Assembly (NCBI GenBank): GCA_963820595.1 | Contig: CAWGAO010000008.1 | Coordinates: 9,857-73,856 of the forward strand | Direction: 5' to 3' | Origin: Candidatus Tagabacteria bacterium | GTDB taxonomy: Bacteria > Patescibacteriota > Minisyncoccia > GCA-002779875 | DNA: 64,000 nt | In this document: positions 3,783 to 63,127 of the stretch, one piece after another | Position numbering within the stretch: the first letter of the stretch is position 1 | Layout: every line of letters begins with the position of its first letter | Notes under the pieces: model-generated | What the model saw: the letters and a program-made list of their open reading frames with translations, nothing else | Database searches by the model: none | Told to the model about the DNA's origin: nothing | Program-made: the position numbers and the translations under genes

Positions 3783-4154
3783 CTAAACAACCTCCGGCGC
3801 TAAAGAAATAATTTTCGCGTATCCCCGTTCGCGAAGCTCTCTGGGCATGGGCCCAAAAATACGGCCTGCTTTCGGCTCCTGAGTTTTCGCCTCAAGAATT
3901 ATCACGGCATTATCGTCAAAACGCACATACGAACCGTCTTTTCTGCGGTAAGGCTGGCGCTGACGGCAAACTACCGCTCTAAGCACATCTTTTTTCTTCA
4001 CTGCCTTTCTCGGCTCCGCGGATTTCACGGAAACAACCACAATGTCGCCTATGCGGGCATATCGCCTGCGGCTTCCGCCCGGCACTTTAATAACCTGCAC
4101 GAGTTTTGCCCCGCTGTTATCGGCAACACCTACCATTGAACGAGTTTGAATCAT
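3783..4154 (-). CDS. rplN: 50S ribosomal protein L14
   Basis: [24 protein letters not shown]... canonical L14. Confidence 0.9.
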
Positions 4155-4341
4155 GCCAAAATTATATGAACATTAGCGAATAATAATTTTGCGCACCGAG
4201 CACATAATTTATAGCAACCTTTTTATTAAGATGTTCGAAATTTTTACTAAATCTTTTTTTGAAACTTCACTAAATTTTTCATAAAATTATGTGCTCGGTA
4301 AAGGTTTGGCGCCTATATTTTCTCGTCTAAAACTCGAAAAT
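4155..4341 (-). repeat. mosaic intergenic module (leader box ending at rplN ATG; arms accgagcacataatttat / ataaaattatgtgctcggt; hairpin)
   Basis: arm sequence differs from other copies but the two arms still match each other. Confidence 0.65.
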
Positions 4342-4573
4342 CTAGGCCAATCCCTTTACTTCCCAATGCTTGCCTCTCGACCTTGGTTTTGTTTCCTGAA
4401 TTATCACTTTATCGCCGACCTTATACTCGTTTTTCTCATCGTGCGCCTTATAGCGTTTGCTTGCTTTTCATATATTTTCCGTAAAGAGGATGTTTTGTAT
4501 AGCGCTACACCTCAACGACAACCGTTTTTGCCATTTTATCGGAAACAACAACTCCTTTTAATTTCTTTGCCAT
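4342..4573 (-). pseudogene. rpsQ: 30S ribosomal protein S17, reading frame broken by an in-frame TAG and one frameshift (probably sequence error)
   Basis: rc translation MAKKLKGVVVSDKMAKTVVVEV*RYTKHPLYGKY...; after a 1-nt shift ...[32 protein letters not shown]; expected gene-order position between rpmC and rplN. Confidence 0.7.
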
Positions 4574-4673
4574 ATGATTGATTTTCTTAATGAGCGAAGC
4601 GAGTTTTGAAAATCATCACCCCCTTCTTTTCGCGCAAGCGCGCAAAAGGAGGGGGTTAAGAAAAACATAATCG
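4574..4673 (-). repeat. mosaic module, leader variant containing a palindromic unit (rc GAGCGAAGCGA loop) ending at rpsQ ATG
   Basis: arms aaccccctccttttgcgcgc / gcgcgaaaagaagggggtg. Confidence 0.6.
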
Positions 4674-4862
4674 CTATCGCTCTTTGTTTTTCATTAAAGT
4701 TATAATTCTCGCGATATCTTTTTTTATTTCACGGGCGGCTTTCGTATTTTTGATTTTGCCATGCCCCATCTCAAAACGGAATTTTCTCAAAGCCTCACGC
4801 TTGTCTTTTAGAAGAGCAGCAAGCTCAATTTCGGTTTTTTCTCTTAATTCTTTTATTTTCAT
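4674..4862 (-). CDS. rpmC: 50S ribosomal protein L29
   Basis: MKIKELREKTEIELAALLKDKREALRKFRFE... Confidence 0.85.
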   Translation of the reverse strand: MKIKELREKTEIELAALLKDKREALRKFRFEMGHGKIKNTKAAREIKKDIARIITLMKNKER

Positions 4863-5047
4863 GCCATAATTATATGAACGCTAGTGAATAATAATTTTCG
4901 CACCCCGCCTCTAACGCTTGCGCTCTTTTTATTAAATGATTATCTTGATATTTGCTTCATAATTTTTGTTTAAATTCGTGATAGAGGGCGGGTAAAGGTT
5001 TGGCAACAGAATTTTTCGCCTACGGCTCAAAATTCTGTCCAATTCGC
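4863..5047 (-). repeat. mosaic intergenic module (leader box at rpmC ATG; arms caccccgcctctaacgc / gatagagggcgggt; 3' hairpin)
   Basis: direct reading. Confidence 0.65.
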
Positions 5048-6646: not shown

Positions 6647-7820
6647 ATGTTTGGACTTATTCAACAACTTTTTATAAAAATCGTGTCGGCTATAGCGGGT
6701 CTTATTATCGCCGTCGGCATTGTTCAGATGCCGACTTATGTTTCAGAATACAAAACACCTCCCCATAACAATGCACCCGAAAACATAGCAACGCGGGAAA
6801 TTACGCCGACATCGCAAAAAAGCGGAAAATAATAATTTTGTTCTCCCAAACGAAAATATTTCCCGCCGCCTCGACTACATCTTCTGTTCCGAACAAACGC
6901 AAAAGACAACGCCGGCCGCGCCAGCCGCGCCGACTATTTCCCTAACCGAACTGAATAAACAAGCCAGAAAAACCATTGTTAATATTATTTGCACCAATAA
7001 GGCCGGCGGGCCATTTAATCCGATAACGGGAAGCGGAGTTATCATCAGCCCTAAAGGAGTGATTTTGACTAACGCCCACATCGGCCAGTATTTTCTTTTG
7101 GAAAATTCGCCGGAAGCGGGATATCTGGATTGCACCATCCGCAACGGCGACATCGCCCAGCCTGCTTACGACGCCAAACTTATTTACATTCCTTCTGCTT
7201 GGATTGAAGAAAATGCCGCCAACATTATTCAAGAGGAACCGAAAGGAACAGGAAAAAATGATTACGCTTTCCTACTCATCACCAAATCCATTATCGAAGA
7301 AAAAGAGCTCCCTGCCTCGCCGGCAGGCGGGCCGCCGACTTTCGATTTCACCGAACCGAATTTTGATTTCAATGTCCTTCCTTTTAATTTCCAGGTTCTT
7401 TTAGCGAGCTATCCCGCCGGCTTTATCGGCGGCATCGAAATCCAGAAAGATCTCGGCCTTACATCAACTTTCGCGCCCGTAATCGACTTCTACACTTTCG
7501 CGACGACCGGGCCGGCGACTCTTGACCTGTTTTCGCTCGGCGGAAACATCGTCGCCCAAGGCGGCTCATCCGGCGGCGCGGTCGTAGATACGAGAGACGG
7601 AAAACTGCTTGGGATAATAACGACCTCGAGCGATGCGACGACGACCGCCGGCCGCGTTTTAAACGCCATCACCGTGCCCTATATCAGGCATACTTTTGAA
7701 AAATATACGGGAGACAGTCTTTCTTACTTTATAGACGACCCTGAAACATACGATGTTTTGCCTTCCGCCGAATTCAATCGCATCAAACAGCTTTTAATCG
7801 ACCAGTTGAATAAACTTTAG
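6647..7820 (+). CDS. membrane-anchored trypsin-like serine protease, apparent frameshift near 6790-6830
   Basis: N-terminal signal anchor ORF; after a frame change ...GVILTNAHI... and ...GGSSGGAVVD... (GDSGG-like active-site region). Confidence 0.6.
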
Positions 7821-7844
7821 CAATTAGCAATTAATTTTTCGGGA

Positions 7845-8873
7845 ATGAAATCATTGCCCAACCCGTGGCATCTTAAGAAGAGCCCGGATAATTTATTAAA
7901 AGCCAGTTATATCGAATGGAAATATTTCAATTTTTCCGCACCCTCGGTTTCCGGAATTTTCGTTTACGCTATTTTCGACCCACTGAATATTACCAGCATC
8001 GGCGGCGGAAGAATGGTGGCCAGAATTTTCAGGGATAAAAAAATCTTCGGAGGAGCAAAACGCATCTCCATGAAAAAAATATCGGCTTCGGACAGCAGCG
8101 CTGAAATTAAAATGGACGATTTTGGTTCCATTGCCGTAAATAAAAATAATTACGTAATCAAGGGAAAATTAGGCGGCGTTTCTTGGAACTTGAAATATTC
8201 GCCGCTGGCTCAACCGATTCGGGGATTTTCCAACCTCGGCCTTGATTTTTTAAATCTGGAAAAGGCTTCTTGGGAAATAAAAATGCCGAAAGCCAAAGTT
8301 TCCGGTACGGTGAAAATCGGCAAAAAAAGATTTTCCGTGCGCTCTTTCGGATACACCGATGCCAACTGGGGAAATTTTATTCCCATTACCGCCAAATTTA
8401 ACTGGGCTCAATATAATGACGGCAAAATCAGCATTGTGGCGGGTGAAACGGAAAGCATGGAAATTCGCGGAAAGAAAATCGGACGCTGGACGAAAATATA
8501 CGTAACTTTTGGAAGGCAAAAAATAGCATTTTTGGGAAAAAACGTCAGTATAAAACGCGACAAATGGATGACGATTCCCGGCACAAACATGAAAGCGCCG
8601 AGCATTGCGTCAATTCAAGCTGAAAATAAACAATATGCCCTGCGCCTGGAAGCCCGAAGCCTTTTTTCTGACCCCATAAGATTCGAAATGCCTTTTTCTC
8701 TTCCTTTCAGGCCGGTAATTTTGGAACAGCCAGCGATATTTGCCGGCGCGCTATTTAAAAAAAGCGGTAGTTCTTTAAAACCCGTCTGCAAAATTAAAAG
8801 AAAGGGATTTATGGAATGCACGCTTCGCGAGATAGGATTTTCAAAAAAATTAAAAGTGGGAATTTTAGTCTGA
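7845..8873 (+). CDS. hypothetical protein (342 aa)
   Basis: long intact ORF, no motif recognised. Confidence 0.45.
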   Translation: MKSLPNPWHLKKSPDNLLKASYIEWKYFNFSAPSVSGIFVYAIFDPLNITSIGGGRMVARIFRDKKIFGGAKRISMKKISASDSSAEIKMDDFGSIAVNKNNYVIKGKLGGVSWNLKYSPLAQPIRGFSNLGLDFLNLEKASWEIKMPKAKVSGTVKIGKKRFSVRSFGYTDANWGNFIPITAKFNWAQYNDGKISIVAGETESMEIRGKKIGRWTKIYVTFGRQKIAFLGKNVSIKRDKWMTIPGTNMKAPSIASIQAENKQYALRLEARSLFSDPIRFEMPFSLPFRPVILEQPAIFAGALFKKSGSSLKPVCKIKRKGFMECTLREIGFSKKLKVGILV

Positions 8874-8894
8874 ATATCAGGAAAGGACGTACGT

Positions 8895-8960
8895 TTGACT
8901 TTAGCACGCCAAATTGCTAGAAATTAAGGAAGAAAATTCTTTGAAAAAGCCATCTCGAAA
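8895..8960 (+). promoter_or_regulatory. conserved promoter/5'UTR box P2 (TTGACTTTAG..CAAATTGCTAGAAAT..GAGAAAATTCTTTGAAAAAGG)
   Basis: five near-identical copies upstream of unrelated genes (8895, 10909, 12645, 14093, 14925). Confidence 0.55.
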
Positions 8961-8969
8961 GGAGGAAAA

Positions 8970-10396
8970 ATGGAAAAAAGCAGCCGTATCGAATTACCGA
9001 AAGAAAAAATACCCGTAGCTTGGTACAATATCGTTCCGGATCTTCCCGAATCGCTGCCGCCGCCGAGAGACGAGGAAGCATTGGGAAGATTAGTGAAAGC
9101 CCTTGTCGGCGAATGCCTGAAGCAGGAAATGTCGAATGAAAGATGGATAGCCATCCCGCCCGAACTTATTAAGATTTATGCCGAAATCGGAAGGCCCCGT
9201 CCTCTGACTCAGGGCGAGGAATCTCGAAAAACTCCTCGGCCTTAAGGGTATCGAGCTTTATTTCAAGATGGAAGGCGAAAGCCCGACCGGCAGCCATAAA
9301 CTCAACACCGCCGTTGCCCAAGCATACTTCGCTAAAAAAGCCGGCATCAAAAGGCTGACAACGGAAACGGGCGCCGGCCAATGGGGAACGGCGCTTGCCT
9401 GCGGAGCGAAACTGCAAGATTTGGAATCCACGGTCTATTGGGTGAAATGTGTTTACAAATGGAAAAAGGAAAGAAGAAAATTCATAAAATTTTTCGGGGC
9501 GGAAGTTTTCGCTTCACCCAGTCAAAACACGGAGGCAGGCAGAAAATTTCCTAAAGACCATCCCGGCTCTCTTGCCATCGCGATTTCCGAAGGAATCGAA
9601 GACGCCTTAAGCGACCCGGACGCGAAATATTGCCTTGGCTCGGTGCTTAATCACGTCTTGATGCATCAAACAATCATCGGCCTTGAGACAATAGAACAAC
9701 TCTCAATGATAGACAGGTATCCGGCCGATTATATGATCGCCTGCGTCGGCGGAGGAAGCAATTTCGGAGGCTTCTGTCTTCCGACAATCGGCAAGATTCT
9801 GAAAGAAGGGATAAAAACAAAATGCATTGCCGTCCAGAGCGAGAGTTCGCCCAACCTCATAAAAGGCGTTTATAGATACGACAGGGGAGACCACGCCGAG
9901 CTCACGCCGGAATTAATGATGTACACCCTCGGACATCAATGCGAGATGAAGCCGATAAAGGCTGACGGCCTAAGATATCATGCCGCAGCGCCCATAATCA
10001 GCTCTGCTCAGAAAACTCGGATTCATTGAAGCAGTAAGCTACCCTGCCGATGAAATACGAGTTTTTGAAAGGGCAAAAATTTTCATCGAATCCGAAGGGT
10101 TCCCTCTCGGAACGAAAGATTCGAAAAAGAATATCAAAGAAGCTCTTTTGAGGGCGAAAAAATTTCTTAAAGTGGTCACCGGCACAAGCAATATCCAGGA
10201 AATGTTCGCGGTGAGTAAAGATTTTATAGAAAACAAAATCTTTATTCCGGCGCCGGAATCGGCTTACGCTGTCGCCCACGCGATTGATAAAGCGCTCGAA
10301 TGCAAAAAGGAAAAAAAGAAGGCAGTGATAGTCGCCAATATCAGCGGTCATGGCTTTCTTGATATCGAAGCTTACCGGGAAAAATTAAATCTTTAA
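8970..10396 (+). CDS. trpB: TrpB2-type tryptophan synthase beta-like PLP enzyme, >=2 apparent frameshifts
   Basis: pieces: ...IPVAWYNIVPDLPESLPPP...; ...MEGESPTGSHKLNTAVAQAYFAKKAGIKRLTTETGAGQWG...; C-terminal piece ends ...ISGHGFLDIEAYREKLNL. Confidence 0.7.
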
Positions 10397-10397
10397 A

Positions 10398-10435
10398 TTA
10401 AAAGGCGTTTCGCAAGTTGCGAAACGCCTTTTTAT
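10398..10435 (+). terminator. rho-independent terminator (ggcgtttcgcaagttgcgaaacgccttttt)
   Basis: perfect 11-bp stem plus T-run. Confidence 0.7.
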
Positions 10436-10460
10436 TTGATTTGTAACCGCCCTGACGAAC

Positions 10461-10712
10461 TTAATTGTCAAACGGGAATGGCGAGACTGGCGCGCAATGG
10501 AGGTGGCATTCCGGACATGGCATCGTAGCTTGCAACACTCCCTTTCCTTTTGTTCGGTAAGGTAAAAAAACAGTAGTATCTTCATCCAGCGGAATACCCG
10601 CGAATGAAGGCGCATCTCCCTCTTGAAGCCGGAATTCGCAGCCGCACTTTACGCATTTTCCATACCATCCTTCAAATGGCCATTGTTTATAAGTAGCTCC
10701 GTGATACAAAAC
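10461..10712 (-). CDS. small Cys-rich (zinc-ribbon-like) protein, one apparent frameshift near start
   Basis: SD aaggagg + ATG at 10710-10712; CxxC and CPEC motifs. Confidence 0.45.
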   Translation of the reverse strand, partial: VLYHGATYKQWPFEGWYGKCVKCGCEFRLQEGDAPSFAGIPLDEDTTVFLPYRTKGKGVLQATMPCPECHLHCAPVSPFPFDN

Positions 10713-10904
10713 TCTTAGTCATTTTTTCTCCTCCTTTATTTTTAACATCTATTTTTAAACATCAAAAAATCCAAGACAAAAATAGCACATCTCCGCGCTC
10801 TTCGTCAAGTCAACTCGCTCGGGCGACCCGACAGCCTCGCTCGTAAGCACAGCCGGGAAAAATTATTGCCTGCCCTGAGCGCAGTCGAAGTGAAATCATT
10901 TTTA

Positions 10905-10965
10905 TTTGACTTTAGGGCACTAAATTGCTAGGAACTAAAGAGAAGAAATCTTTTCAGCCAAAGGC
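10905..10965 (+). promoter_or_regulatory. P2 conserved promoter/5'UTR box
   Basis: tttgactttagggcactaaattgctaggaactaaagagaagaaatc. Confidence 0.5.
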
Positions 10966-11034
10966 TGATCCGCCGTACTTTGATATTTTAAAAATAATGT
11001 GGCGGAGAAAATTTTAAAGAGGAAAGGAGATTAA

Positions 11035-12218
11035 GATGAGGGAAGTGGTAATAACCGGCGCGGTAAGAACAGCTATCGGTAATTTTCTCGGCGCATTGAG
11101 TTCTTTCAGCGCAACCGAGTTGGGAGGGCTGGTGATAGAAGAGGCGATAAAAAGATCCGGATATCAAAAAAGAGGATGTTGATGAAGTGATTATGGGAAA
11201 CGTCCTTTCAGCCGGACTGGGACAAAATCCGGCTCGCCAAGCGATGATTAAGGCGGGACTTCCAATGTCGGGAGGAGCCCTGACAATAAATAAAGTTTGC
11301 GGCTCCGGCTTGAAAGCTGTTATGCTGGCGGCTCAAGTCATCATGGCAGGAGACGCGGAAGTGATTGTCGCGGGCGGAATGGAAAGCATGAGCCGAACCC
11401 CTTATTATCTGGAAAACGCAAGAACGGGATATCGGCTTGGGAATGGAAAACTAGTGGACGGGATGGTTCATGACGGCCTTTGGGATGTGGTGAACGATTA
11501 TCCTATGGGGTTCACCGCCGAAATACAGTCGAAAAAATTTAACATCAGCCGGGAAGAACAGGACCGATTTGCTTACGAATCAAATCTTCAAGGCGATGAA
11601 GGCCATACGAGAAGGAAAATTCAAGGAAGAAATCCTCCCGCTCTCAATTCCGCGCGGAAAAGGAGAATTGATTTATTTTGAAATCGATGAGGGACCCCGC
11701 GACCCAGACCTCCAAAAGATGGCCAATTAATGTCCGTCTTTAAAGAAGGCGGCGTTGTCACCGCGGCAAACTCCTCTAAAATCAGCGATGGAGCAAGCGC
11801 TCTGGTCGTGATGTCGAAAAAGAAAGCCAAATCTCTGGGGATGAGGCCTATGGCGAAAATCATAGCACAGGCGGCAGCGGGCGTGGAATTGGAAGATGTC
11901 TTGGTCGCTCCGATTCAATCGATTCCGAAAGTTCTCAAAAAGGCGGGGCTATCTATCGAGGAGATCGATCTTTTTGAAATCAACGAGGCTTTTTCCGCGA
12001 CAACTTTGGCCGTCATCAAAACCTTGGGCATTGATAAAAACGGGTGAATATTCATGGCGGCGCCATCGCATCTGGGCCATCCAATCGGCGCCAGCGGCGC
12101 GAGAATTCTGACCACATTGCTTTACGCGATGAAAGATGGCGGAGCGAAAAGAGGAATGGTTTCTCTTTGTTTGGGCGGCGCGGAAGCCGTAAGTTTGATT
12201 GTCGAACAGATACCATAA
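11035..12218 (+). CDS. acetyl-CoA C-acetyltransferase (thiolase), at least 4 apparent single-nt frameshifts
   Basis: [21 protein letters not shown]...; ...[22 protein letters not shown]...; ...NVNGGAIA([13 protein letters not shown])... recovered only after frame changes. Confidence 0.75.
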
Positions 12219-12268
12219 ATAAGCGCCGTAAAAAATAAGAAAATTCTTTAGAAAAAGGGGGTTAAAAT

Positions 12269-12442
12269 ATGGAAGAGCTACGAAATCGTTTCGACGGCAA
12301 ACCTTGGCTTGGTTATGATGAAACAGAAAATCGTCGGTCAGGGGCCACGGTAAGTATTTTAATGTTGTTGCTGGTTTTTGTGGGGTTTGAGTATTTTCTG
12401 TGTGTAATAAATGAATTTCTTAAATTTTGTTTGACGAGATAA
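12269..12442 (+). CDS. small membrane protein (57 aa)
   Basis: SD aaaggggg + ATG; C-terminal hydrophobic helix; followed by terminator. Confidence 0.4.
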   Translation: MEELRNRFDGKPWLGYDETENRRSGATVSILMLLLVFVGFEYFLCVINEFLKFCLTR

Positions 12443-12454
12443 AAACCTTTAAAG

Positions 12455-12482
12455 CCCTTCGGGGCTTTTTGTTTTGGGGAAT
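12455..12482 (+). terminator. terminator aaagcccttcggggcttttt (copy 1 of 3)
   Basis: same stem-loop reused at 13047 and 14590. Confidence 0.65.
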
Positions 12483-12644
12483 TTAATTTGGGCGACTTAG
12501 CGGAAAGAGCTGGAACTCATTATTTCCTTCAATGCCCTCTTAGAACTTGACAAGAACTTTTGGCTTAATATAATTCATTTGAATCACGATAAGAGGCTAT
12601 CCAAAGGGTTTCGTCCCACGGCAATGCCTCTTTTTTTTATCTTG

Positions 12645-12700
12645 ACTCCCGGCTGTCAAATTGCTAGGAATAACTGAGAAATTTCTTTGAAATACGGAGG
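12645..12700 (+). promoter_or_regulatory. P2 conserved promoter/5'UTR box
   Basis: cttgactcccggctgtcaaattgctaggaataactgagaaatttctttgaaatacggagg. Confidence 0.5.
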
Positions 12701-12704
12701 CATC

Positions 12705-13034
12705 GTGAGAGCAAGAAAAACGACAAAGAAAGTTTCAGTCCGTAAGTCAGGAATAGCAGGCAGGGGTGTTTTTGCGGGAGAGGATATTAAAAAGGGAGAA
12801 TTTATTTTCAAAGCAGGTGATAATTTTGATGTTTTCGTTTTTTTAAATCACTCATGCCGTCCCAACGCGGAATTGATAAGGCAGAGCGAAAGCGCGTTAT
12901 GCGACAAACTTTTTGCCCGACGCAATATAAAAGCCAGAAAAGAAATAACTTTTGATTACAGAAAAACGCGGTGGAGTCATTATTATGACGAGATAGAAGA
13001 AAAAAGCGGCTGTTTTTGTGGCAGATGTAAATAA
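12705..13034 (+). CDS. SET-domain protein (putative protein-lysine methyltransferase), GTG start
   Basis: NHSCRPN motif, ITFDY, and C-terminal CFCGRC post-SET-like Cys cluster. Confidence 0.7.
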   Translation: MRARKTTKKVSVRKSGIAGRGVFAGEDIKKGEFIFKAGDNFDVFVFLNHSCRPNAELIRQSESALCDKLFARRNIKARKEITFDYRKTRWSHYYDEIEEKSGCFCGRCK

Positions 13035-13259
13035 AAAACCGTTCAAAAGCCCTTCGGGGCTTTTTGCTTTTGAGAATTTAATTTGGGTCGCATAGTAGAG
13101 GACGTTAGAACTGTAATCCAGCGACAGCAGGGGTATATTTATATCCCAGATTTAAAACCGACAATGATGAAGATATAACCTATCCTACCCCGCTACTAAC
13201 TATTTCAAAAGGACGGGGTTCGTGATTGATTTTTTAATTAAAGGCTCTACACTTTGGAT

Positions 13260-13883
13260 ATGAAAACATACGCCTTCATAGATGCCTCAAATCTTTTTTA
13301 CGGCGGCGAGAAAAGTCTCGGTTGGAAAATAGACTATAAGAAACTTTTGGAATATCTAAAAGAGAAATACAGCGTTAGCCACGCTTTTTATTTTGGTGGC
13401 GTAGAGATACATAATTTTGAATATGATTACCAAAAAAACGATACTGTTCCGCTCAACGAACTTGAAAAACACCTCAAAACTTTGATTAGTAATGAAGGGT
13501 CAAAGTTAAACGAAGCCGAGCTCTTACTTATCGGACGGCATTTACAAAGAGTTCGCTTTTACCAACGCCTCAATAGCTTTGGCTATAAATTATACCTGAA
13601 ACCAGTTAAACTCTATGACCAAGAGGACGGCACGACTAAGAGAAAAGCTAATTGTGATGTCGATATGGCTTTCCACCTTATGAAGGAAAAAGATAACTTT
13701 AATAGTGCTGTCATTTTATCTGGGGACGGAGATTTCTTGCCAGTGTTAAAATATCTCAAAACTAATAGTAAAGATATGATTATATTGGGTAGGAGCGAGA
13801 GGGCAGCTAAAGAAATTAAGCAATTTGCAGGGAGCAATTTCAAAGACTTTCAATATCTTAGAGAACGCCTCAAAATGGCCTAA
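13260..13883 (+). CDS. NYN-domain (LabA-like) protein, probable RNase
   Basis: AFIDASNLFYGG N-terminal motif and ILSGDGDFLPVL motif typical of NYN/LabA. Confidence 0.65.
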   Translation: MKTYAFIDASNLFYGGEKSLGWKIDYKKLLEYLKEKYSVSHAFYFGGVEIHNFEYDYQKNDTVPLNELEKHLKTLISNEGSKLNEAELLLIGRHLQRVRFYQRLNSFGYKLYLKPVKLYDQEDGTTKRKANCDVDMAFHLMKEKDNFNSAVILSGDGDFLPVLKYLKTNSKDMIILGRSERAAKEIKQFAGSNFKDFQYLRERLKMA

Positions 13884-14145
13884 AAAAACGAAAAGCACCC
13901 ATTTAGGATGCTTCTCACGTTTAGTATCTCCACTATAGCAAGCTGGTTTTTATTGTCAATATCCACTTTTACCCTACCCCGCTACTCACTATTTCTTCGG
14001 AGAAAAACGGGGTGGGCTACGGGACGCATTCAGAACCCTGGATTGGATACAGGTTAGGAAAGAGTTGGATGATTTCGCCTTGCATTTTGAACAACAATTT
14101 GCTATAAATAACTGAGAAAATTCCTTGAAAAGGAGGAAAAGATTG

Positions 14146-14562
14146 AAAGGAAAATATTTTTTGCCTTTTCGCATATCTAAAAATGTAAGCGTTGCTTCGG
14201 CTCCTTACCATAAGAAAGCGAGAAATATGAAACATTGCGTAGATTTTTCTATGCCAGAAGGCACATCTATTTTGGCGTCACGCGAAGGAAGGGTTATTCA
14301 TTGTGAAAGCAGATTTAATAAAAGTTATTCTTCTCCAAAGTATGCCGATAGATGCAATCGTATCATAATTGTTCACGCGGATGGCGATGAATCCGTTTAT
14401 GCTCATCTGAAATGTCATTCTTTGAAGGTAAAAATTGGTGAGTTTGTAAAAAAAGGACAGTTGTTGGGTTTGAGCGGACAAACCGGCTATGCGACTTATC
14501 CGCATTTACATTTCGGAGTTTACGATAAGAACGGGAAAAATAGAAAAATTGATTTCAGATAA
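14146..14562 (+). CDS. M23 (LytM-type) peptidase domain protein
   Basis: HADGDESVYAHL and GQTGYATYPHLHFGVY motifs. Confidence 0.65.
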   Translation, partial: KGKYFLPFRISKNVSVASAPYHKKARNMKHCVDFSMPEGTSILASREGRVIHCESRFNKSYSSPKYADRCNRIIIVHADGDESVYAHLKCHSLKVKIGEFVKKGQLLGLSGQTGYATYPHLHFGVYDKNGKNRKIDFR

Positions 14563-14603
14563 AATATAAAATTACGAGAGCCCTTCGGGGCTTTTTTGTT
14601 TTT

Positions 14604-14792
14604 GAGAATTTAGCCAGCCCCGCACAACAGTTTGCGGGATTTTTCACAGCAAGCCGCTTCGCGGGAAAGGGATGCGGCTATTCGCCGCCCGCGGCTTGCG
14701 AAACTTTTTATATTTTTCGTGTAATGTAATTTTTCAAAAAGAATGCACGGCAAACTGTATGCGGGGCACTCAATTTTGTAAACAGAAAATCG
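14604..14792. repeat. GC-rich palindrome-rich insertion splitting the duplicated boundary sequence
   Basis: gcaagccgc...gcggcttgc and ccccgcacaac...gcggggcac inverted repeats; flanks are continuous with copy at 13066-13110. Confidence 0.45.
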
Positions 14793-14976
14793 CATTCCGA
14801 AGAACGCTATTTTTTGAGCAAAATTGGTGGGTCGCATAGTAGAGGACGTTAGAACTGTAATCCAGAATCAAAATGAGTATGTTTATATACCGGATTTAAT
14901 TCCGCAATTGACAGCAACTCTTTAAGATGCTACGAATTTCTTTGGAAATAAATTCCTTGAAAAGGAGAAAAAAATA

Positions 14977-15291
14977 ATGGTAAAGAATAAAGCATCTATG
15001 ATTGTAAAGGCTCTTGGCCCAAAGGATTTGGAAAGTCTACTGATCGCGGAAAAGAAGAAAGCAAAGCGGGAAATTATAAAAATGAAAATTAACTCTCACT
15101 TTGTTGGGGACGACATTCACCCCGGTTATAATCATTATGCCGTAATAGACCCCCATGAAATTATCACGAAGGAAATTAACGAAAGCGATCTAAGGTCTAT
15201 CGTCCGAGCATACAAAAAAGCCGGCTGGAAAAGAGTTGAAGTTGAGCGTTTAGCATTAGGGAATATGGTTAGATTCACCTTTATACCCTAG
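14977..15291 (+). CDS. hypothetical protein (104 aa)
   Basis: SD aaaaggag + ATG; preceded by P2-like box. Confidence 0.45.
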   Translation: MVKNKASMIVKALGPKDLESLLIAEKKKAKREIIKMKINSHFVGDDIHPGYNHYAVIDPHEIITKEINESDLRSIVRAYKKAGWKRVEVERLALGNMVRFTFIP

Positions 15292-15402
15292 AAGATTTTG
15301 CAGTTCGCAATGGCTTAAGCGTAAATCCTTATAAAATAAAAATTATAACAAAAAGCCGCCTGGTTTTCCCGAGCGGTTTTTTTATTTTTCCAAAATCGCT
15401 TG

Positions 15403-15477
15403 GGTGCTCGATCGGACTTGAACCGACAACCACCAGGTCCACAACCTGGAGCTCTAACCAATTGAGCTACGAGCACC
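15403..15477 (-). tRNA. tRNA-His (GTG) with extra 5' G(-1)
   Basis: rc gives G-GTGCTCGTAGCTCAATTGGTTAGAGCTCCAGGTTGTGGACCTGG...GGTTCAAGTCCGATCGAGCAC; anticodon loop TTGTGGA. Confidence 0.85.
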
Positions 15478-17731: not shown

Positions 17732-18877
17732 ATGGATTTTGAATTAAATGAAGAACAAAAACTGATCCAAAACAGCGTCAGAGATTTTGTAAAAAAGGAA
17801 ATCGCGCCCATTGCGGACGAAATCGACAAGAAAGACGAATTTCCGAGCGAAATAGTGCAAAAGATGGCTGGCCTGGGAATACTAAGTATCCCTTTACCGG
17901 AAGAATTTGGCGGAATGGGCGGCGACATCTTAAGTTATGTTTTAGCCCTCGAAGAAATATCTAAAGTTTCTGTGGCGGTAGCAATTACCGTTGCCGTCCA
18001 CACATCTCTTGTTTCCGCTCCGATTAACGAATTCGGAAACCGGAACCAAAAAGAAAAATATCTTGTGCCGCTGGCAAAAGGCGAAAAATTGGGGGCGTTT
18101 CTGCCTGACAGAACCTAATGTCGGCTCTGACGTCGGCTCCATAGAAACAACCGCCGAATTCAAAAAGACATGACCATTACCTCTTGAACGGAACAAAGAT
18201 TTTCATAACAAACGGCGGAGTGGCCGAAACTTATCTTGTTTTTGCCGCAACCGACAACCAGGAAAAAAAGCCGAAAAGATTGAGCGCCTTCATTATCGAA
18301 AAAGGGATGCCGGGGTTTTCTTTCGGCACCCGATACGAAAAAATGGGTTGGCGAGGCTCTGAAACCCGCGAGCTTATTTTTGAAGACGTGAAAATTCCTC
18401 TTGAGAATTTGTTGGGCCAGCGAGGCGACGGATTTCTCGAGGCGATGAAAATTTTGGACGGCGGGAGAATCAGCGTCGCGGCATTATCTCTCGGTTTGGC
18501 CGGCGGAGCCTTGGAAGCCGCCTTAAAATACGCAAAAACACGGCGGCAATTTGGGAAAACTCTTGCCGAATTTCAGGCAGTCCAAATTTTGCTTGCCGAT
18601 ACGGCGACGGAGATAGAAGCTGCCAGATATTTAATCTGGAAAGCTATTCAGCTTAAAGAAAAAAACAAACCGTATCGTAAAGAAGCGGCGATGGCAAAAC
18701 TTTTCAGCTCGGAAATGGCCGTAAGAACAGTTTCAAAAGCTCTCCAAATCCACGGAGGCTCCGGATACATGAAGGATTCTCCGGTGGAACGATTCTACGG
18801 GATGCTAAGGTGCTGGAAATTGGTGAAGGCACTTCGGAAATCCTTCGGTTGCTAATTGCCAGTGAATTAAGAAATTG
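17732..18877 (+). CDS. acyl-CoA dehydrogenase, 3 apparent single-nt frameshifts
   Basis: ...GAF/CLTEPNVGSDVGS... and ...ERFY/RDAKVLEIGEGTSEILRLLIASELRN recovered by frame changes; one clearly a TTT/TT homopolymer. Confidence 0.75.
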
Positions 18878-18990: not shown

Positions 18991-19075
18991 GCAATAATTT
19001 TTAAGAATGACTCGCTTTTTATATTTTTCTATAATGAAAGAGAAGGAAAAAGTTCTTTAAAAAAGGGAGAAACAA

Positions 19076-22159: not shown

Positions 22160-22285
22160 GTAGTCCCGATAATTCTAAATTTGAATTATCGAGGATCCTC
22201 GATTTTCTAGCGAAAATCGGGATGAAATGGACCCCGAAGTATAAACCTTCGGTTTAACTACGGGGCAGGTATCACTTAAAAATAA
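22160..22285 (+). ncRNA. structured leader upstream of tRNA-Arg (three-way stem arrangement, shares aactacggggcaggt with repeat family at 1440/58380)
   Basis: outer stem cccctgtagt/actacgggg enclosing two hairpins; preceded by TTGTCA-16-TAAAAT. Confidence 0.35.
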
Positions 22286-38618: not shown

Positions 38619-38660
38619 TCTTCTTTAAAGAAGATTCTTTGAAATAAAAAGGAGAAAAGA

Positions 38661-41408: not shown

Positions 41409-41502
41409 TGAATTCGCCCGCGATTTTGAGCGAAGCGAAGAATCGCGGTTACAAAATGCGAAAACATTAAATTATTAGTCGTTTAACTCCTTAATTTTTG
41501 GC
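41409..41502 (+). repeat. minimal module: palindromic unit (GAGCGAAGCGA loop) + AT-rich leader ending at rpsG ATG, without arm pair
   Basis: cccgcgattttgagcgaagcgaagaatcgcgg ... taactccttaatttttggcATG. Confidence 0.6.
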
Positions 41503-41970
41503 ATGAGAAGAAAAATCAGAGTAAAATACAAATTAAATCCAGACCCGCTTTACGACTCGAAAAAAATCGAGAAATTTACCAATTACCTGATGTGGAAAGG
41601 AGAAAAATCCGTTGCTCGTGAAATCGTCTATCAAACTTTTGAAGAAATAAAAAAGAAAATAAAAGCAGATCCGATTGCGATTTTCGAAAAAGCGATTGAA
41701 AATGTTTCACCTATGATTGCAGTGCGCTCCCGAAGAGTCGGAGGCGCCACCTATCAGGTTCCTAGAGAAATTCCTCCTGAAAAACGCATAGGCTTCGCAA
41801 TGCGCTGGATAATTCTGGCGGCGCGGTCAAAAAAAGGCAAAAATATGTCCTATCGGCTTTCGGAAGAACTTATTGCGGCTTCTAAAAACGAAGGAGCAGC
41901 CGTTAAAAAAAGAGAAGATACTCATAAAATGGCCGAGGCTAATCGCGCTTTCGCTCATTTTGCTTGGTAA
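41503..41970 (+). CDS. rpsG: 30S ribosomal protein S7
   Basis: canonical S7. Confidence 0.9.
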   Translation: MRRKIRVKYKLNPDPLYDSKKIEKFTNYLMWKGEKSVAREIVYQTFEEIKKKIKADPIAIFEKAIENVSPMIAVRSRRVGGATYQVPREIPPEKRIGFAMRWIILAARSKKGKNMSYRLSEELIAASKNEGAAVKKREDTHKMAEANRAFAHFAW

Positions 41971-42171
41971 TGACTTTGCTCGCTATTTGGAGCGTTAGCG
42001 ACAAATTGCGGCCGCAAAACATTACCCGCCTAAGTTTTTGCGAAATAATTAAAATATGAAAAATCTAAAAAAGAAAAATTTTCAAAAATTTAATTCGTCT
42101 TTGGAGTATACCCGCAAAAATTTGGGCGGGTGTTCAAAAATTATAGTCATTAACATTCCTTAATTTTTAGC
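41971..42171 (+). repeat. mosaic module (palindromic unit, arms cgcctaagtttttgcg / cgcaaaaatttgggcg, leader GGTGTTCAAAAATTATAGTCATTAACATTCCTTAATTTTTAGC-ATG)
   Basis: direct reading. Confidence 0.65.
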
Positions 42172-44244: not shown

Positions 44245-44488
44245 TGGCTTGGCCCGCGATTTGGAGTGAAGCGACAAATTGCGGTTGCCAAATATTACCC
44301 CGCCCTTTTGGGCGCGAGATGTTATAATAAAACTATGGATATATTAAGTTTAAAAATTATAAAACGGCAATGCGCTTTAGTTATAACGGGATGCGCCTAT
44401 TCGGCGCCCGCGCATTGCGGAATTGAGTATGGCGCCAAAAGGGCGGGGTGCTCAAAAATTATAGTCGCTTAACTCCTTAATTTTTGGC
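44245..44488 (+). repeat. mosaic module (palindromic unit GGAGTGAAGCGA loop; arms ccccgcccttttgggcg / cgccaaaagggcgggg; leader ending at ATG 44489)
   Basis: direct reading. Confidence 0.65.
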
Positions 44489-44587
44489 ATGTCTGACGAC
44501 CAAGAACAAAAAGAAAAACTTTTCTCCGAAGAGGCCTTAGAAGACGATTTGGAAATCGAAGCAGATGTAGAAAGTTTGCCACTTTAA
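44489..44587 (+). CDS. small acidic peptide (32 aa) with its own module leader
   Basis: MSDDQEQKEKLFSEEALEDDLEIEADVESLPL; leader identical in type to rpsG/fusA leaders. Confidence 0.3.
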   Translation: MSDDQEQKEKLFSEEALEDDLEIEADVESLPL

Positions 44588-45193: not shown

Positions 45194-46388
45194 ATGGCAG
45201 AAAAATTTGAAAGGACAAAGCCGCACGTAAACGTCGGCACAATCGGCCACGTTGACCACGGCAAAACCACTTTGACCGCCGCTCTTTTGCACGTGCTTAA
45301 TTTGGCGGGCAATAAAGTTAAAATGGAAGGCGTCAATGACATCGACAACGCGCCCGAAGAAAGACAGCGCGGCATTACCATTGCCCTTCACCACTCGGAA
45401 TACGAAACTCCGAAAAGGCACTATGCCCACATCGACGCTCCGGGCCACGCAGACTACATCAAAAACATGATTACCGGAGCCGCTCAAATGGACGGCGCTA
45501 TTCTGGTCGTTTCCGCTGCCGACGGCGCAATGCCCCAGACCCGAGAACACATTCTTTTGGCCCACCAGGTCGGCGTTCCGGCAATCATTGTTTTCCTGAA
45601 TAAAGTCGACACGGTTGACGACAAAGAATTGGTTGATTTAGTTGAAGCGGAAATCCGCGAGTTGCTTACAAAATACCAATATCCCGGAGACAAAACTCCT
45701 ATTATTCGCGGTTCGGCTTTAAAGGCGCTTGAGGCAAAATCAGTCGATGACGAATGGGCAAAACCAATCTTGGAACTTGCCAAACAACTTGGACGAATAC
45801 ATTCCTGAACCGGTGCGTGAAATCGATAAACCGTTTTTAATGCCCATTGAAGATATTTTCTCAATCGAAGGTCGCGGAACGGTTGTTACGGGCCGCATTG
45901 AACGAGGCAAAATAAAACTTAGCGATGAAGTTGAAGTAGTCGGCTTACGCCCCACTCAAAAAACAGTAGTTACCGGAATTGAAATGTTCAATAAATCCCT
46001 GGATGAAGGATTGGCGGGCGATAACGCCGGGATATTACTTCGAAGTCTCAAAAAAGAAGACGTGGAACGCGGCCAAGTTTTGGCCAAACCAGGCTCCATT
46101 ACTCCACATACCGAATTTCAAGCCGAAATTTATATCTTGACCAAAGAAGAAGGCGGCCGCCACACGCCGTTTTTTGCGGGCTATAAACCGCAATTTTATC
46201 TTCGCACAACCGACGTGACCGGAGCCGTTACCCTTCCGGAAGGCACTGAAATGGTTATTCCGGGCGACACGATTTCATTAAAAGTAGAACTTTTGGCGCC
46301 CGTTGCTCTGGAAGAGAAACAGCGATTCGCGATTCGCGAAGGAGGAAAGACCGTCGGCGCAGGAGCCATAACAAAAATCATAAAATAA
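45194..46388 (+). CDS. tuf: elongation factor Tu, one apparent single-nt insertion near 45785
   Basis: [13 protein letters not shown]...; after -1 shift [34 protein letters not shown]...; cttggacg vs expected cttgacg. Confidence 0.9.
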
Positions 46389-58379: not shown

Positions 58380-58645
58380 CCCCGGCACCAATTTTGCGTG
58401 ATATTTCACGGCGAAGCGCTCCCCGAAGTATCCGCCTCCGGCGGAACTACGGGGCAGGTCGCCCTAACTCTAGTGGCTACTTGCCCCGCATAATCGCGTA
58501 GCGATTTGTGCGGGGTTCGCCGCACGCGCTTCGCAAAAATTGTTCTTATTTCCCGCCTATAAAGCGCCTAGCAACAAAAAAGTGGCAAAATTGATGCGGG
58601 GTGCCCAAAAATTATAGTCGTTTCACTCCTTAATTTTTGGCAAAT
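58380..58645 (+). repeat. degenerate module (no ATG at leader end) whose spacer carries copy B of the GC-rich structured repeat
   Basis: arms accccggcaccaattttgcg / gcaaaattgatgcggggtg; leader ends ggcaaata instead of ggcatg. Confidence 0.55.
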
Positions 58646-61906: not shown

Positions 61907-63127
61907 ATGATTTCCAAAGAATTCATTGCGAAAATTGAAGGGCATGGCAGTATTCATGTCGATTGGGATAAAAATGAGGCGAAATTGAAAATTCTTGAAG
62001 GAGAACGGCTTTTTGAAGGAATACTTGAAGGAAGAACCGCCGAAGAGGCTCACTGGATAACGCCGAGAATTTGCGGAGTTTGCCCCATCGCCCACAATCT
62101 CGCGTCCGTTTTTGCCTGCGAAAATGCGCTCGGAATAACGCCGAACGAGACAACGCTCCTTTTGCGAAAACTTATGCTGGCCGGACAAATGATTCAGAGC
62201 CATTTCCTGCATCTGTTTTTTTTAGCCCTGCCAGATTACATCGGCATCGACCGCGGCACGGAATTAAACAAAAAAAATCCCAAAGCCTTCCAAATGGCCT
62301 TGGACCTCAAAGAAGTTTCCGACGAAATTGCCCAAACTGTCGCCGGAAGGAATGTTCACCCGACAACCACGACTGTCGGCGGGTTTCACAAATTACCCAC
62401 AAAAGAATCGCTCGAAAACTTACTGGAATTACTTAAAAAAACGCGGAAGGCCGCCGAAAACACGGTGAAACTTTTTGAAAAATTAGAATATCCACAATTA
62501 AAAGTGGATTTGGAACTAGTTAGCCAAAACGGAAACAAAATCGTTTCGAATAAAAACGACGAATCTTTAATTAAAGATTATAAAAAAGATATCGAAGAAG
62601 AAGTAAAAGATTATTCAACCGCAAAATTCGGCCGCTACAAAACACGGGAAATAATGGTCGGCGCCCTGGCTCGAATAAATAATTTTGACACGGGAAAAAA
62701 ATCCGGTCTCGATTACCAAAATCCGTTTCACAATAATCTTGCTCAAGCTATTGAAATTCTCCTGTACCATAACCAAGCCGAGGATTTAATCAACCAGCTG
62801 TTATCAAGCGGAATGGATGACAAAATCGGCGTGAAACCCTTCGACTCCGCTCAGGGCAAGCCGGAAGGAATTCAGGCGCCACTTGTCGGCATCGGCGCAG
62901 TTGAAGCCCCAAGAGGCGGGCTTTATCATGAATTCCATTTCAACGAAAAAGGAATCATTGCTTACGCGAACATCATTACTCCGACCGTCCAAAATCTGAC
63001 ATCCATTGAAAAAAGCGCCAACGCGCTTCTCGAACAACACAAAAACCAGCCGCTTGAAGAAAAAAAGCGCCTTCTGGAAATGCTTGTTCGGGCCTATGAC
63101 CCCTGCATCACCTGCGCCGTGCATTGA
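61907..63127 (+). CDS. hydA: [NiFe]-hydrogenase large (alpha) subunit
   Basis: N-terminal RICGVCPIAH and C-terminal DPCITCAVH Ni-binding motifs. Confidence 0.8.
   Translation: MISKEFIAKIEGHGSIHVDWDKNEAKLKILEGERLFEGILEGRTAEEAHWITPRICGVCPIAHNLASVFACENALGITPNETTLLLRKLMLAGQMIQSHFLHLFFLALPDYIGIDRGTELNKKNPKAFQMALDLKEVSDEIAQTVAGRNVHPTTTTVGGFHKLPTKESLENLLELLKKTRKAAENTVKLFEKLEYPQLKVDLELVSQNGNKIVSNKNDESLIKDYKKDIEEEVKDYSTAKFGRYKTREIMVGALARINNFDTGKKSGLDYQNPFHNNLAQAIEILLYHNQAEDLINQLLSSGMDDKIGVKPFDSAQGKPEGIQAPLVGIGAVEAPRGGLYHEFHFNEKGIIAYANIITPTVQNLTSIEKSANALLEQHKNQPLEEKKRLLEMLVRAYDPCITCAVH

Follow-up and report, generated by a model that had tools for sequence, protein, structure and literature searches.

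The 64-kb stretch of contig CAWGAO010000008.1 analysed here (the window), from a Candidatus Tagabacteria bacterium of the Patescibacteria, contains several copies of an element called P2, which joins a promoter to the complete leader of the gene that follows and which stands before genes that are unrelated to one another. All full copies in the window lie in a single variable island between a conserved trypsin-like gene and the gene for tRNA-His, and further copies precede other genes in contigs from related organisms. To judge from the sequences compared below, P2 is probably an ordinary σ70-type promoter and translation-initiation module that has been reused, by duplication and recombination, within an island that grows by accretion.

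Detection of the P2 family

Simple pattern counts give only weak evidence for a P2 family: a 15-mer of the element is found 7 times with up to three mismatches against 8.9 expected, which is no enrichment, and an 18-mer of the leader gives 7 matches against 2.4 expected. The decisive evidence comes from an independent test, in which a two-block position matrix for P2 was trained solely on eight copies from other, related metagenome contigs and applied to both strands of the window. Five sites score above 15 bits (Table 1), the top score in 100 locally shuffled windows being 18.5 bits, and chance is ruled out as the source of the family. Since just five sites in 64 kb pass the matrix threshold, P2 is not the promoter of most genes. 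Four of the copies, at 8894, 10905, 12641 and 14079, also appear as a 49-nucleotide (nt) repeat family with 61-100% identity.

A preliminary description of the window had placed a shared promoter and leader before six unrelated genes. Reading of the sequence and alignment of the six upstream regions locate the motif at the named places to within about 3 nt, and the genes are indeed unrelated, with Pfam matches to PALP, thiolase, SET and Peptidase_M23 and, for two open reading frames (ORFs), no Pfam match. The thiolase copy is confirmed with its -35 element beginning at 10906 instead of 10909, and what had been taken for a short form of the motif before ORF 12269 is a copy of the leader from which the promoter is absent.

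The copies differ in completeness. In the thiolase copy an insertion of 55 nt (10954-11008) interrupts the leader box after AAGAAATCTTT; this insertion is missing from the ortholog in the related contig L003, where the leader runs unbroken (AAGAAATCTTTGAAAATTTTAAAGAGGAAGGAG) and where the thiolase region is 91% identical to that of the window over 532 nt. The insertion holds two small hairpins, TCAGCC-AAA-GGCTGA and CCGCC...GGCGG, and has no Rfam match. The M23 peptidase copy, with -35 TTGCAT at 14080, reads TTGCAT ... TGCTATAAAT AACTGAGAAAATTCCTTGAAAAGGAGG and belongs to subtype b (see below); an identical M23 protein (P0001) is already on record with a TTG start. The weakest full copy, that of ORF 14977-15291, combines a weak promoter block (5.6 bits), which is the generic promoter TTGACA-17-TGC-TACGAA with its -35 at 14908, with a strong leader, AAATTCCTTGAAAAGGAG, that is 92% identical to the leader of the M23 copy.

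Anatomy of the module

The promoter was aligned in 14 full copies from the window and its relatives, and column conservation was taken from 16 copies. A full copy consists of a -35 element, a 17-nt spacer, an extended -10 element, a variable stretch of 9-19 nt, the leader block and the start codon. The -35 element is TTGACT, TTGACA or TTGACG in 10 of the 14 copies and TTGCAT or TTGAAT in the remaining four, while the spacer, which ends in AAAnTTGC, is exactly 17 nt long and places TGC 5' of the -10 element in all 14. The -10 element is TAKRAA followed by T, with A at -11 in every copy and A at -7 in 11 of the 14. The leader block, (G)AGAAAWTTCYTTGAAA(A), is mostly fused to GGAGG, and the start codon lies 5-9 nt beyond. 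Its characteristic part, the leader box, has the consensus AAWTTCYTTGAAA and lies just 5' of the strong GGAGG ribosome-binding site; it can also be rendered as UUCUUUGAAAA, GAGAAAATTCTTTGAAAA or UUCUUUGAAAAGGAGG. The suggestion that conservation continues well past the -10 element is borne out by the 16-copy alignment, in which the sole invariant or near-invariant columns are those of TTCYTTGAAA in the leader. The predicted leader is about 25-35 nt long, with predicted transcription starts (+1) such as the A at 12677 and the A at 14115.

Three subtypes of P2 can be distinguished: a, TTGACTTTAG...; a', TTGACTTC...; and b, TTGCATTTTGAAC...TAACTGAGAAAATTC. Within a subtype, the positions that are not constrained by a recognised element are 58-84% identical between copies that precede unrelated genes.

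Generic elements and the island-specific whole

About 23 further sites in the window read TTGACA-N16/17-(TGC)TATAAT, and the same TTGACA/TGC/TATAAT grammar occurs at 38 loci of other Patescibacteria, so that the hexamers, the TGC and part of the AAATTGC stretch must be regarded as generic. The leader box is shared more widely as well. Among 29 promoter-like sites that were picked blind to TTGAAA, eight have this sequence within 45 nt downstream (background 0.049, p = 5.6e-5), and at -50 to -7 of starts that are led by a Shine-Dalgarno (SD) sequence it is found in the sense orientation in 14 of 34 cases and in the antisense orientation once. It also precedes core genes such as KdpD and Polysacc_deac, the leader of the latter keeping the box in the relatives L086, L087, L093 and L099 while its flanks diverge. 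The P2-like leaders at 38628 and 19046 (Table 1) likewise show that the box is not limited to the island. In more distant Patescibacteria the TTGAAA box is scarce (1 of 43 sites).

The preliminary description had allowed that the motif might prove to be simply the generic promoter of the genome. This is true of the individual elements, that is, of the -35, the TGC-extended -10 and the TTGAAA box, all of which are generic for the lineage, a point which that description had missed; it is not true of P2 as a whole, which is a distinct cluster found, within the window, solely in the variable island.

The strict P2 pattern has 0 matches in 185,579 species-representative genomes, and of four metagenome matches to it, three are attributable to chance. 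Ribosomal protein L16 of the window is at most 66% identical to that of any species representative, the best matches being Patescibacteria of the Parcubacteria/Paceibacteria type, and the more distant relatives found through this protein carry neither P2 nor the leader box. Two distant loci with M23 homologs (L088 and L090) have no P2, and in viral contigs that were scanned for them the leader and the junction box described below both had 0 matches.

Pairing of promoters and genes in related contigs

Contigs from relatives were reached through homologs of the M23 peptidase and of the neighbouring Polysacc_deac protein. Those of L098 and L099 stop at or before tRNA-His and contributed no arrays. 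In L093 (GCA_030692745.1), which shows synteny with the window over the stretch between the ribosomal operon and Polysacc_deac, the interval between the trypsin-like gene and tRNA-His encodes proteins of 211, 57 and 51 residues, a HIT protein, a ParE/YafQ pair, a protein of 177 residues and a SET protein; three of these island genes have a full P2, and HIT and SET have the leader only, which starts straight after the preceding stop codon. Operon-internal leaders without a promoter occur at 12237 in the window and at 7240 and 8962 in L093. Three successive small genes in L087 each have a P2, and L086 and L096 have one P2 each. When the window, L003, L086, L087, L093 and L096 are taken together, at least 12 different gene families have a P2 before them.

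The comparison of orthologs indicates that the promoter changes partner independently of the gene. The M23 gene is preceded by subtype b in the window and L087 and by subtype a in L086; the SET gene has a full P2 in the window and the leader alone in L093; and the 57-residue ORF (12269-12442) has the leader alone in the window and a full P2 in L093 (6714-6885). In all three of the cassettes for which homology between the window and a relative could be delimited (Table 1), it begins at the leader's 5' edge and stops shortly beyond the terminator, with the left edge lying inside the leader in the case of the 57-residue ORF and coinciding with the predicted +1 in the case of SET and M23.

The island at tRNA-His

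The gene order around tRNA-His is common to L086, L087, L093, L095, L096 and L098, and the content of the island differs, between the same anchors, in L086, L087, L093, L095 and L096. The 3' end of the tRNA gene faces the island. Two further repeats are confined to the island. The first is an intrinsic terminator hairpin, AGCCCTTCGGGGCTTTTT (also written GCCCTTCGGGGC), which has three exact copies in the window against 0.25 expected, and which recurs in L086, L087 and L093, in L086 at 10 nt from the 3' end of the real tRNA-His gene. The second is a junction box, GGGTSRCNTAGYRGARRRNGTTRGAACT, with three copies in the window against 0 expected, two of which (13085 and 14829) lie inside an 84-nt repeat (13084-13167 and 14828-14911).

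The junction boxes resemble the 3' end of tRNA-His. The order found in L086 (terminator, about 10 nt, tRNA 3' end) mirrors that of the arrays (terminator, 10-20 nt, box); the flank 5' of the boxes (14752-14828 in the window, 28-100 in L087) is homologous to the flank 5' of tRNA-His in L093; and the box variant of L087 matches the tRNA-His 3' end of L086 at 23 of 26 positions with a 5-nt gap (z = 4.4; 0 of 300 shuffles). An Rfam search (E <= 1, 8.7-15.6 kb) finds nothing but tRNA-His itself, and neither Rfam nor ARAGORN calls a tRNA fragment. The idea that P2 is a degenerate full-length copy of tRNA-His was rejected, as only the box region aligns, and that for one pair.

L095 and L096 have identical Polysacc_deac proteins; in L095 the place of the array is taken by an ORF (2-598) that runs into the tRNA-His 3' end, and in L098 an ORF (3-311), which received no family assignment, likewise reads into it. 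The L095 ORF has a weak PHROG match of its own (E = 7e-5), and its homologs carry the recombinase zinc ribbon PF13408 and are named site-specific recombinases, which suggests that it is the C-terminal part of a large serine recombinase. It belongs to a family that is widespread among Patescibacteria, with 211 proteins at E <= 1e-5; PF13408 is present in the longer members, and many members are short fragments. The island bears what appears to be the signature of repeated insertion at a tRNA 3' end, the evidence for the origin of the boxes being moderate.

These same observations could be read differently. If the junction (terminator, core resembling the tRNA-His 3' end, and P2) were the attachment site of small cassettes that lack an integrase and are inserted at, and excised from, tRNA-His by a recombinase acting in trans, then P2 would be conserved mainly as a part of that site, and would serve in addition as an outward promoter in an integron-like form of capture. 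In keeping with this, terminator, box and P2 come back together, as a block of about 150 nt, between cassettes of the window, of L086 and of L087, terminator and box alike are island-specific, the arrangement from terminator to tRNA in L086 equals that from terminator to box in the arrays, a putative large serine recombinase gene adjoins tRNA-His in L095, and the cassette boundaries fall at the same two points. Yet P2 occurs without a recognisable box before TrpB2, before thiolase and in three copies of L093, leader-only copies occur, no circular or empty-site form was seen and no recombinase gene was found among the scanned ORFs of the window, and the junction has no attC-like hairpin fold (z = -1.2 and +1.1). 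Large serine recombinases, moreover, need sites of no more than about 40-50 bp. We regard a recombination site as an unlikely account of P2. Its fullest form, which we hold to be just as unlikely, is a gene-capture platform of a kind previously undescribed in Patescibacteria, in which single-gene mini-cassettes of leader, ORF and terminator, matching the predicted transcript, would be inserted serially at the tRNA-His 3' end by a large serine recombinase in trans, the junction being recombination site and expression adaptor at once. If this were true, captured genes would be transcribed and translated at once, an integron-like function with a promoter for each cassette and a tRNA as the anchor. 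In a rarer variant of this platform the cassettes would have arisen from RNA by reverse transcription, which would likewise produce breaks of homology at the predicted +1 and where the terminator ends. The junction repeat was also considered as a structured RNA and rejected, its folds being non-significant except for a single strand in a single copy (z = -2.4).

The role of the leader box

The preliminary description had raised the possibilities that the conserved leader is a shared operator, a target of a small RNA or a translational element. The analysis produced no evidence in support of a dedicated operator or a small RNA target. An operator would be the conserved sequence that extends from the -10 as far as the SD, GAGAAAATTCYTTGAAAA, with its dyads GAA-N2-TTC and TTC-N3-GAA, and a transcription factor bound there would unite the island genes in a regulon. 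The segment does lie at about +1 to +20, the classic position for a repressor, it is the best-conserved part of P2, and most copies have the short dyads. These dyads, however, are only 3+3 bp, the island holds no regulator gene, the box precedes core genes as well, and its distance from the -10 is variable (9-19 nt in P2, 3-17 nt in other promoters); the strict orientation of the box and its presence at operon-internal sites without a promoter also speak against an operator, which makes this explanation rather improbable. An operator of CIRCE or CodY type was rejected, since the symmetry TTAGCAC...TGCTAG occurs in one copy only and the spacing is unlike that of the CodY box.

A second possibility is base pairing between UUCYUU in the box and AAGGAG further downstream, by which a small hairpin would mask the SD and tune translation, perhaps as a thermometer of the fourU type. 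The minimum-energy fold does pair UUCYUU with the SD in six of eight P2 leaders (-2.7 to -6.7 kcal/mol), but no fold is better than that of shuffled sequence (z from -1.0 to +1.1), Rfam finds no family, and in many leaders other than P2 an unrelated sequence of 10-25 nt separates the box from the SD. The copies are too alike for compensatory changes to be scored. Masking of this kind seems distinctly improbable.

The occurrence of the box in one orientation, before cistrons that lack a promoter of their own, and at a variable distance from the -10 points to a role at the level of RNA rather than to an operator. Most likely, then, the leader box functions in the transcript, where it would affect translation initiation or the stability of the mRNA, and a putative translational element is the most plausible of the roles proposed for it.

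Proposed mechanism and the evidence against it

If P2 is a reused expression module, the system can be pictured as follows. Each island gene would be transcribed on its own from an extended -10 promoter of σ70 type, the strong SD behind the UUCUUUGAAAA box would drive translation, and the common hairpin terminator would end the transcript, so that P2 and the shared terminator together would make each accessory gene a separate unit of transcription and translation. The island would grow beside the tRNA-His 3' end by successive insertions, which would leave boxes resembling the tRNA 3' end at the junctions, and the repeated leader, promoter and terminator segments would then be duplicated, swapped or deleted by recombination. 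Such duplication, swapping and partial deletion of the module would account for the presence of unrelated genes behind one P2. The anatomy of P2, its coherence as a family, its confinement to the island, its recurrence in relatives and the breakpoints of homology are observations, whereas promoter activity, the transcription start, the function of the leader box and the route of recombination are inferred.

The extra similarity among the copies is probably best explained by common descent and reuse within the island. The opposing explanation is convergence, according to which there is no family at all, and strong promoters and ribosome-binding sites of unrelated origin have reached the same optimum. 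It draws on the presence of every functional element of P2 in the generic promoters of the lineage, and on the small excess of similarity over the family as a whole, the identity at 19 non-hexamer positions being 0.41 against 0.36 for generic promoters. Convergence does not, however, explain the high identity of unconstrained positions within the subtypes, as in TTTAGCACGCC, TAACTGAG and TTTTGAAC, nor the shared terminators and junction boxes, and the matrix sets P2 apart from the other promoters of the window by more than 8 bits. We consider it highly improbable.

Several points nevertheless weigh against the reading of P2 as a reused module, or limit its reach. In view of the identity figures just given, the case for common descent is firm within the subtypes and weaker across the family as a whole. 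The exact register of the -10 element is uncertain, because the T comes one base late, with A at -7 in 11 of the 14 aligned copies, and the start site, the activity of the promoter and the length of the leader are all predicted. A regulator may bind the leader DNA. Gene order is partly colinear in the relatives, and differential loss from an ancestral array could explain part of the observed differences without any movement of cassettes. Only one pair of box and tRNA gives clear statistical support to a tRNA origin of the boxes, the remaining pairs not being significant, and no recombinase was found among the approximately 60 ORFs of the window that were scanned.

Table 1. Coordinates of P2 copies, island features and other repeats (window positions unless a relative is named)
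Feature	Coordinates	Strand	Details
Variable island	8874..15401	.	from the conserved trypsin-like gene (7059-8873) to tRNA-His
P2 copy, TrpB2-like gene	8895..8969	+	matrix 59.2 bits; gene Pfam PALP, 8970-10396, broken by frameshifts; -35 TTGACT 8895-8900, 17-nt spacer, TGC and -10 TAGAAA 8918-8923; leader box TTCTTTGAAAAA 8937-8948, SD AGGAGG, ATG 8970
P2 copy, thiolase gene	10906..11035	+	matrix 34.8 bits; gene 11036-12218, broken by frameshifts
Leader-only copy	12237..12268	+	AAGAAAATTCTTTAGAAAAAGGGGG; between thiolase stop and ORF 12269-12442; -35/-10 absent
P2 copy, SET-domain gene	12642..12704	+	matrix 39.0 bits; gene GTG 12705-13034
P2 copy, Peptidase_M23 gene	14080..14142	+	matrix 53.7 bits; gene TTG 14143-14562
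P2 copy, ORF 14977-15291	14908..14976	+	matrix 26.6 bits; weakest full copy
P2-like leader outside island	19046-19074	+	before ORF 19075 (DUF4015 fragment)
P2-like leader outside island	38628..38660	+	AAGAAGATTCTTTGAAATAAAAAGGAG; before ORF 38661
Shared intrinsic terminator	12451..12476	+	AAAGCCCTTCGGGGCTTTTTG; after ORF 12269
Identical hairpin, after SET	13045-13071		terminator scan
Identical hairpin, after M23	14576-14602		terminator scan
Junction box	13085..13112	+	GGGTCGCATAGTAGAGGACGTTAGAACT; resembles tRNA-His 3' end
Junction box, further copy	14829-14856		
Junction box, variant	12490-12517		
tRNA-His(GTG)	15402..15476	-	ARAGORN; Rfam 67 bits
SET cassette homology	12677-13072; L093 8962-9359		90% (396 nt); local alignment
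57-residue ORF cassette homology	12240-12489; L093 6682-6934		88%; local alignment
M23 cassette homology	14115-14602; L086 137-616		83%; local alignment
Second intergenic family	373-431, 961-1019, 4152-4210, 4860-4918	-	strand of the genes
Second intergenic family	41457-41503, 42125-42171, 44443-44489, 58596-58642	+	strand of the genes
Inverted-repeat pairs	1699/1750, 30547/30646, 30733/30833, 38497/38599, 46445/46500		CCCCGTTAGAG...CTCTAACGGGG

Other elements of the window

Three further elements were observed in the island. Directly upstream of the P2 of the SET gene, the segment 12547-12640 (+) has a perfect consensus promoter, TTGACA-16-TATAAT (12547-12574), followed after about 15 nt by a hairpin and a U-run (AAGAGGC...GCCTCTTTTTTTT); it looks like a small RNA gene of about 60 nt and has no Rfam match. 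An NYN-domain gene (13260-13883) lies between 26-nt direct repeats (13181-13206 and 13970-13995, 92% identity), and a strong antisense promoter (13959-13932, -) is followed by a terminator (13918-13888, -) that faces the 3' end of this gene, an arrangement suggestive of an independent insertion that carries an antisense small RNA. A GC-rich element (14606-14770) with terminal inverted repeats GCCCCGCACAACAGTTTGC ... GCAAACTGTATGCGGGGC is inserted after the M23 terminator and before the junction box that comes next, the fold of 14600-14830 having an energy of -82.5 kcal/mol (z = -4.7 against shuffles); similar GC-rich hairpins lie at about 1560-1700 and at 22232, 23976 and 58421.

Elsewhere in the window, a second intergenic family of about 190-250 nt, probably the one which the preliminary description had called P1, separates ribosomal-protein genes and the genes for S12, S7 and EF-G. 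Its members open, directly behind a stop codon, with a hairpin CGCGATTTGGAG...CAAATCGCG, and end exactly at the next ATG (...TATAATTTTGGCATG or ...CTCCTTAATTTTTGGCATG) with no SD. In L093 the genes L24-L14-S17-L29-L16 are contiguous and these elements are absent, and the elements look like insertions that have replaced the native ribosome-binding sites of essential genes. In addition, five inverted-repeat pairs, CCCCGTTAGAG...CTCTAACGGGG, account for 10 matches against 0.6 expected; several of them stop directly before a -35 box, as in cggggTTGACA at 1761 and 30732 (-), and they form another promoter-linked repeat family.

Several reading frames of the window are broken. They include the TrpB2 and thiolase genes of the island, the small Zn-ribbon gene at 10461-10724 (-), EF-Tu, which is split in two overlapping frames (45194-46388), and S17, which has an in-frame TAG and a frameshift (about 4335-4581, -). 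Because EF-Tu and S17 are broken too, the assembly must be taken to be error-prone, and frameshifts were rejected as evidence that the island genes are pseudogenes.

The lineage has genes for thiolase and acyl-CoA dehydrogenase (11036-12218 and 18184-18855 in the window, 1052-2200 in L099), enzymes of a metabolism of the fatty-acid or butyrate type, and a NiFe-hydrogenase large subunit is encoded at 61907-63127. Such a set of genes is unusual for Patescibacteria.

Implications

Patescibacteria are uncultured organisms with very small genomes, and in the lineage studied here one hot spot by tRNA-His holds a set of acquired or accessory genes that includes TrpB2, thiolase, SET, the M23 peptidase, an NYN nuclease, HIT and a toxin-antitoxin pair. 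The fitting of each accessory gene with the same promoter, leader and terminator would show how a lineage with a tiny genome wires in new genes. P2 is accordingly a candidate for a portable expression cassette in genetic tools for the group, and it may serve as a sequence signature by which flexible islands can be spotted in metagenome bins. The UUCUUUGAAAA leader box, which stands before about 40% of the SD-led genes in the lineage and is nearly missing in other Patescibacteria, is a putative translation or mRNA signal.

Comparison with known systems

Integrons are arrays of unrelated single-gene cassettes with a recurring junction, in which promoterless cassettes are inserted by IntI at attI through attC sites with the core RYYYAAC/GTTRRRY and are expressed from a common promoter, Pc. 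The island resembles them in its unrelated single-gene cassettes, its recurring junction and its differing content between relatives. It differs in that each cassette has its own promoter, there is no attI and no common Pc, and no IntI was found among the scanned ORFs; neither the GTTRRRY nor the RYYYAAC core is present in the junction, GTTAGAA and GTTGGAA of the box not fitting GTTRRRY, and the junction folds no better than shuffled sequences. The integron was therefore rejected as a model.

The Correia elements of Neisseria are short intergenic repeats that supply -35 and -10 elements and part of the 5' untranslated region to unrelated genes. P2 likewise supplies -35, -10 and leader to unrelated genes, but it always ends at the start codon and is confined to one locus. 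A miniature inverted-repeat element was rejected, since no pair of inverted repeats brackets any copy of P2 and there is no target-site duplication.

Accretion of the tRNA type is known from integrative and conjugative elements (ICEs) and cis-mobilisable elements (CIMEs) in streptococci. Another example is provided by the tycheposons of Prochlorococcus, tRNA-targeting elements that build flexible islands in which newer insertions push older ones inward (bioRxiv 10.1101/2020.12.28.424599). The present island is similar in that it abuts a tRNA 3' end, has scattered repeats that may be partial copies of the tRNA, varies in content among relatives and, in some of them, has a putative recombinase gene next to the tRNA. 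It differs in that its units are 0.5-1.7 kb long and mostly consist of one gene, that the window has no integrase or replication module, and that the recombinase of the relative L095 would be a large serine recombinase, whereas tycheposons have a tyrosine recombinase. A shared promoter and leader has not been reported for tycheposons, the word "promoter" occurring 0 times in that paper.

In promoter reuse P2 resembles the "putative mobile" promoters, highly similar promoters that precede non-homologous genes, that occur several times in one genome and also in related genomes, and that have been proposed as a route by which horizontally acquired genes are wired in (Nijveen, Matus-Garcia and van Passel 2012, PMC3575422). 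P2 conforms to this pattern in preceding PALP, thiolase, SET, M23, HIT and unrelated small ORFs, and departs from it in that the repeated unit includes the whole 5' leader with its ribosome-binding site and is accompanied by a shared terminator, and in that it is confined to one tRNA-adjacent island of an uncultured Patescibacteria lineage. What is unusual in comparison with these systems is the reuse of a whole leader with a shared terminator, the organisation in one-gene units and the lineage-specific leader box. The mechanism looks ordinary, and the genomic organisation looks moderately interesting.

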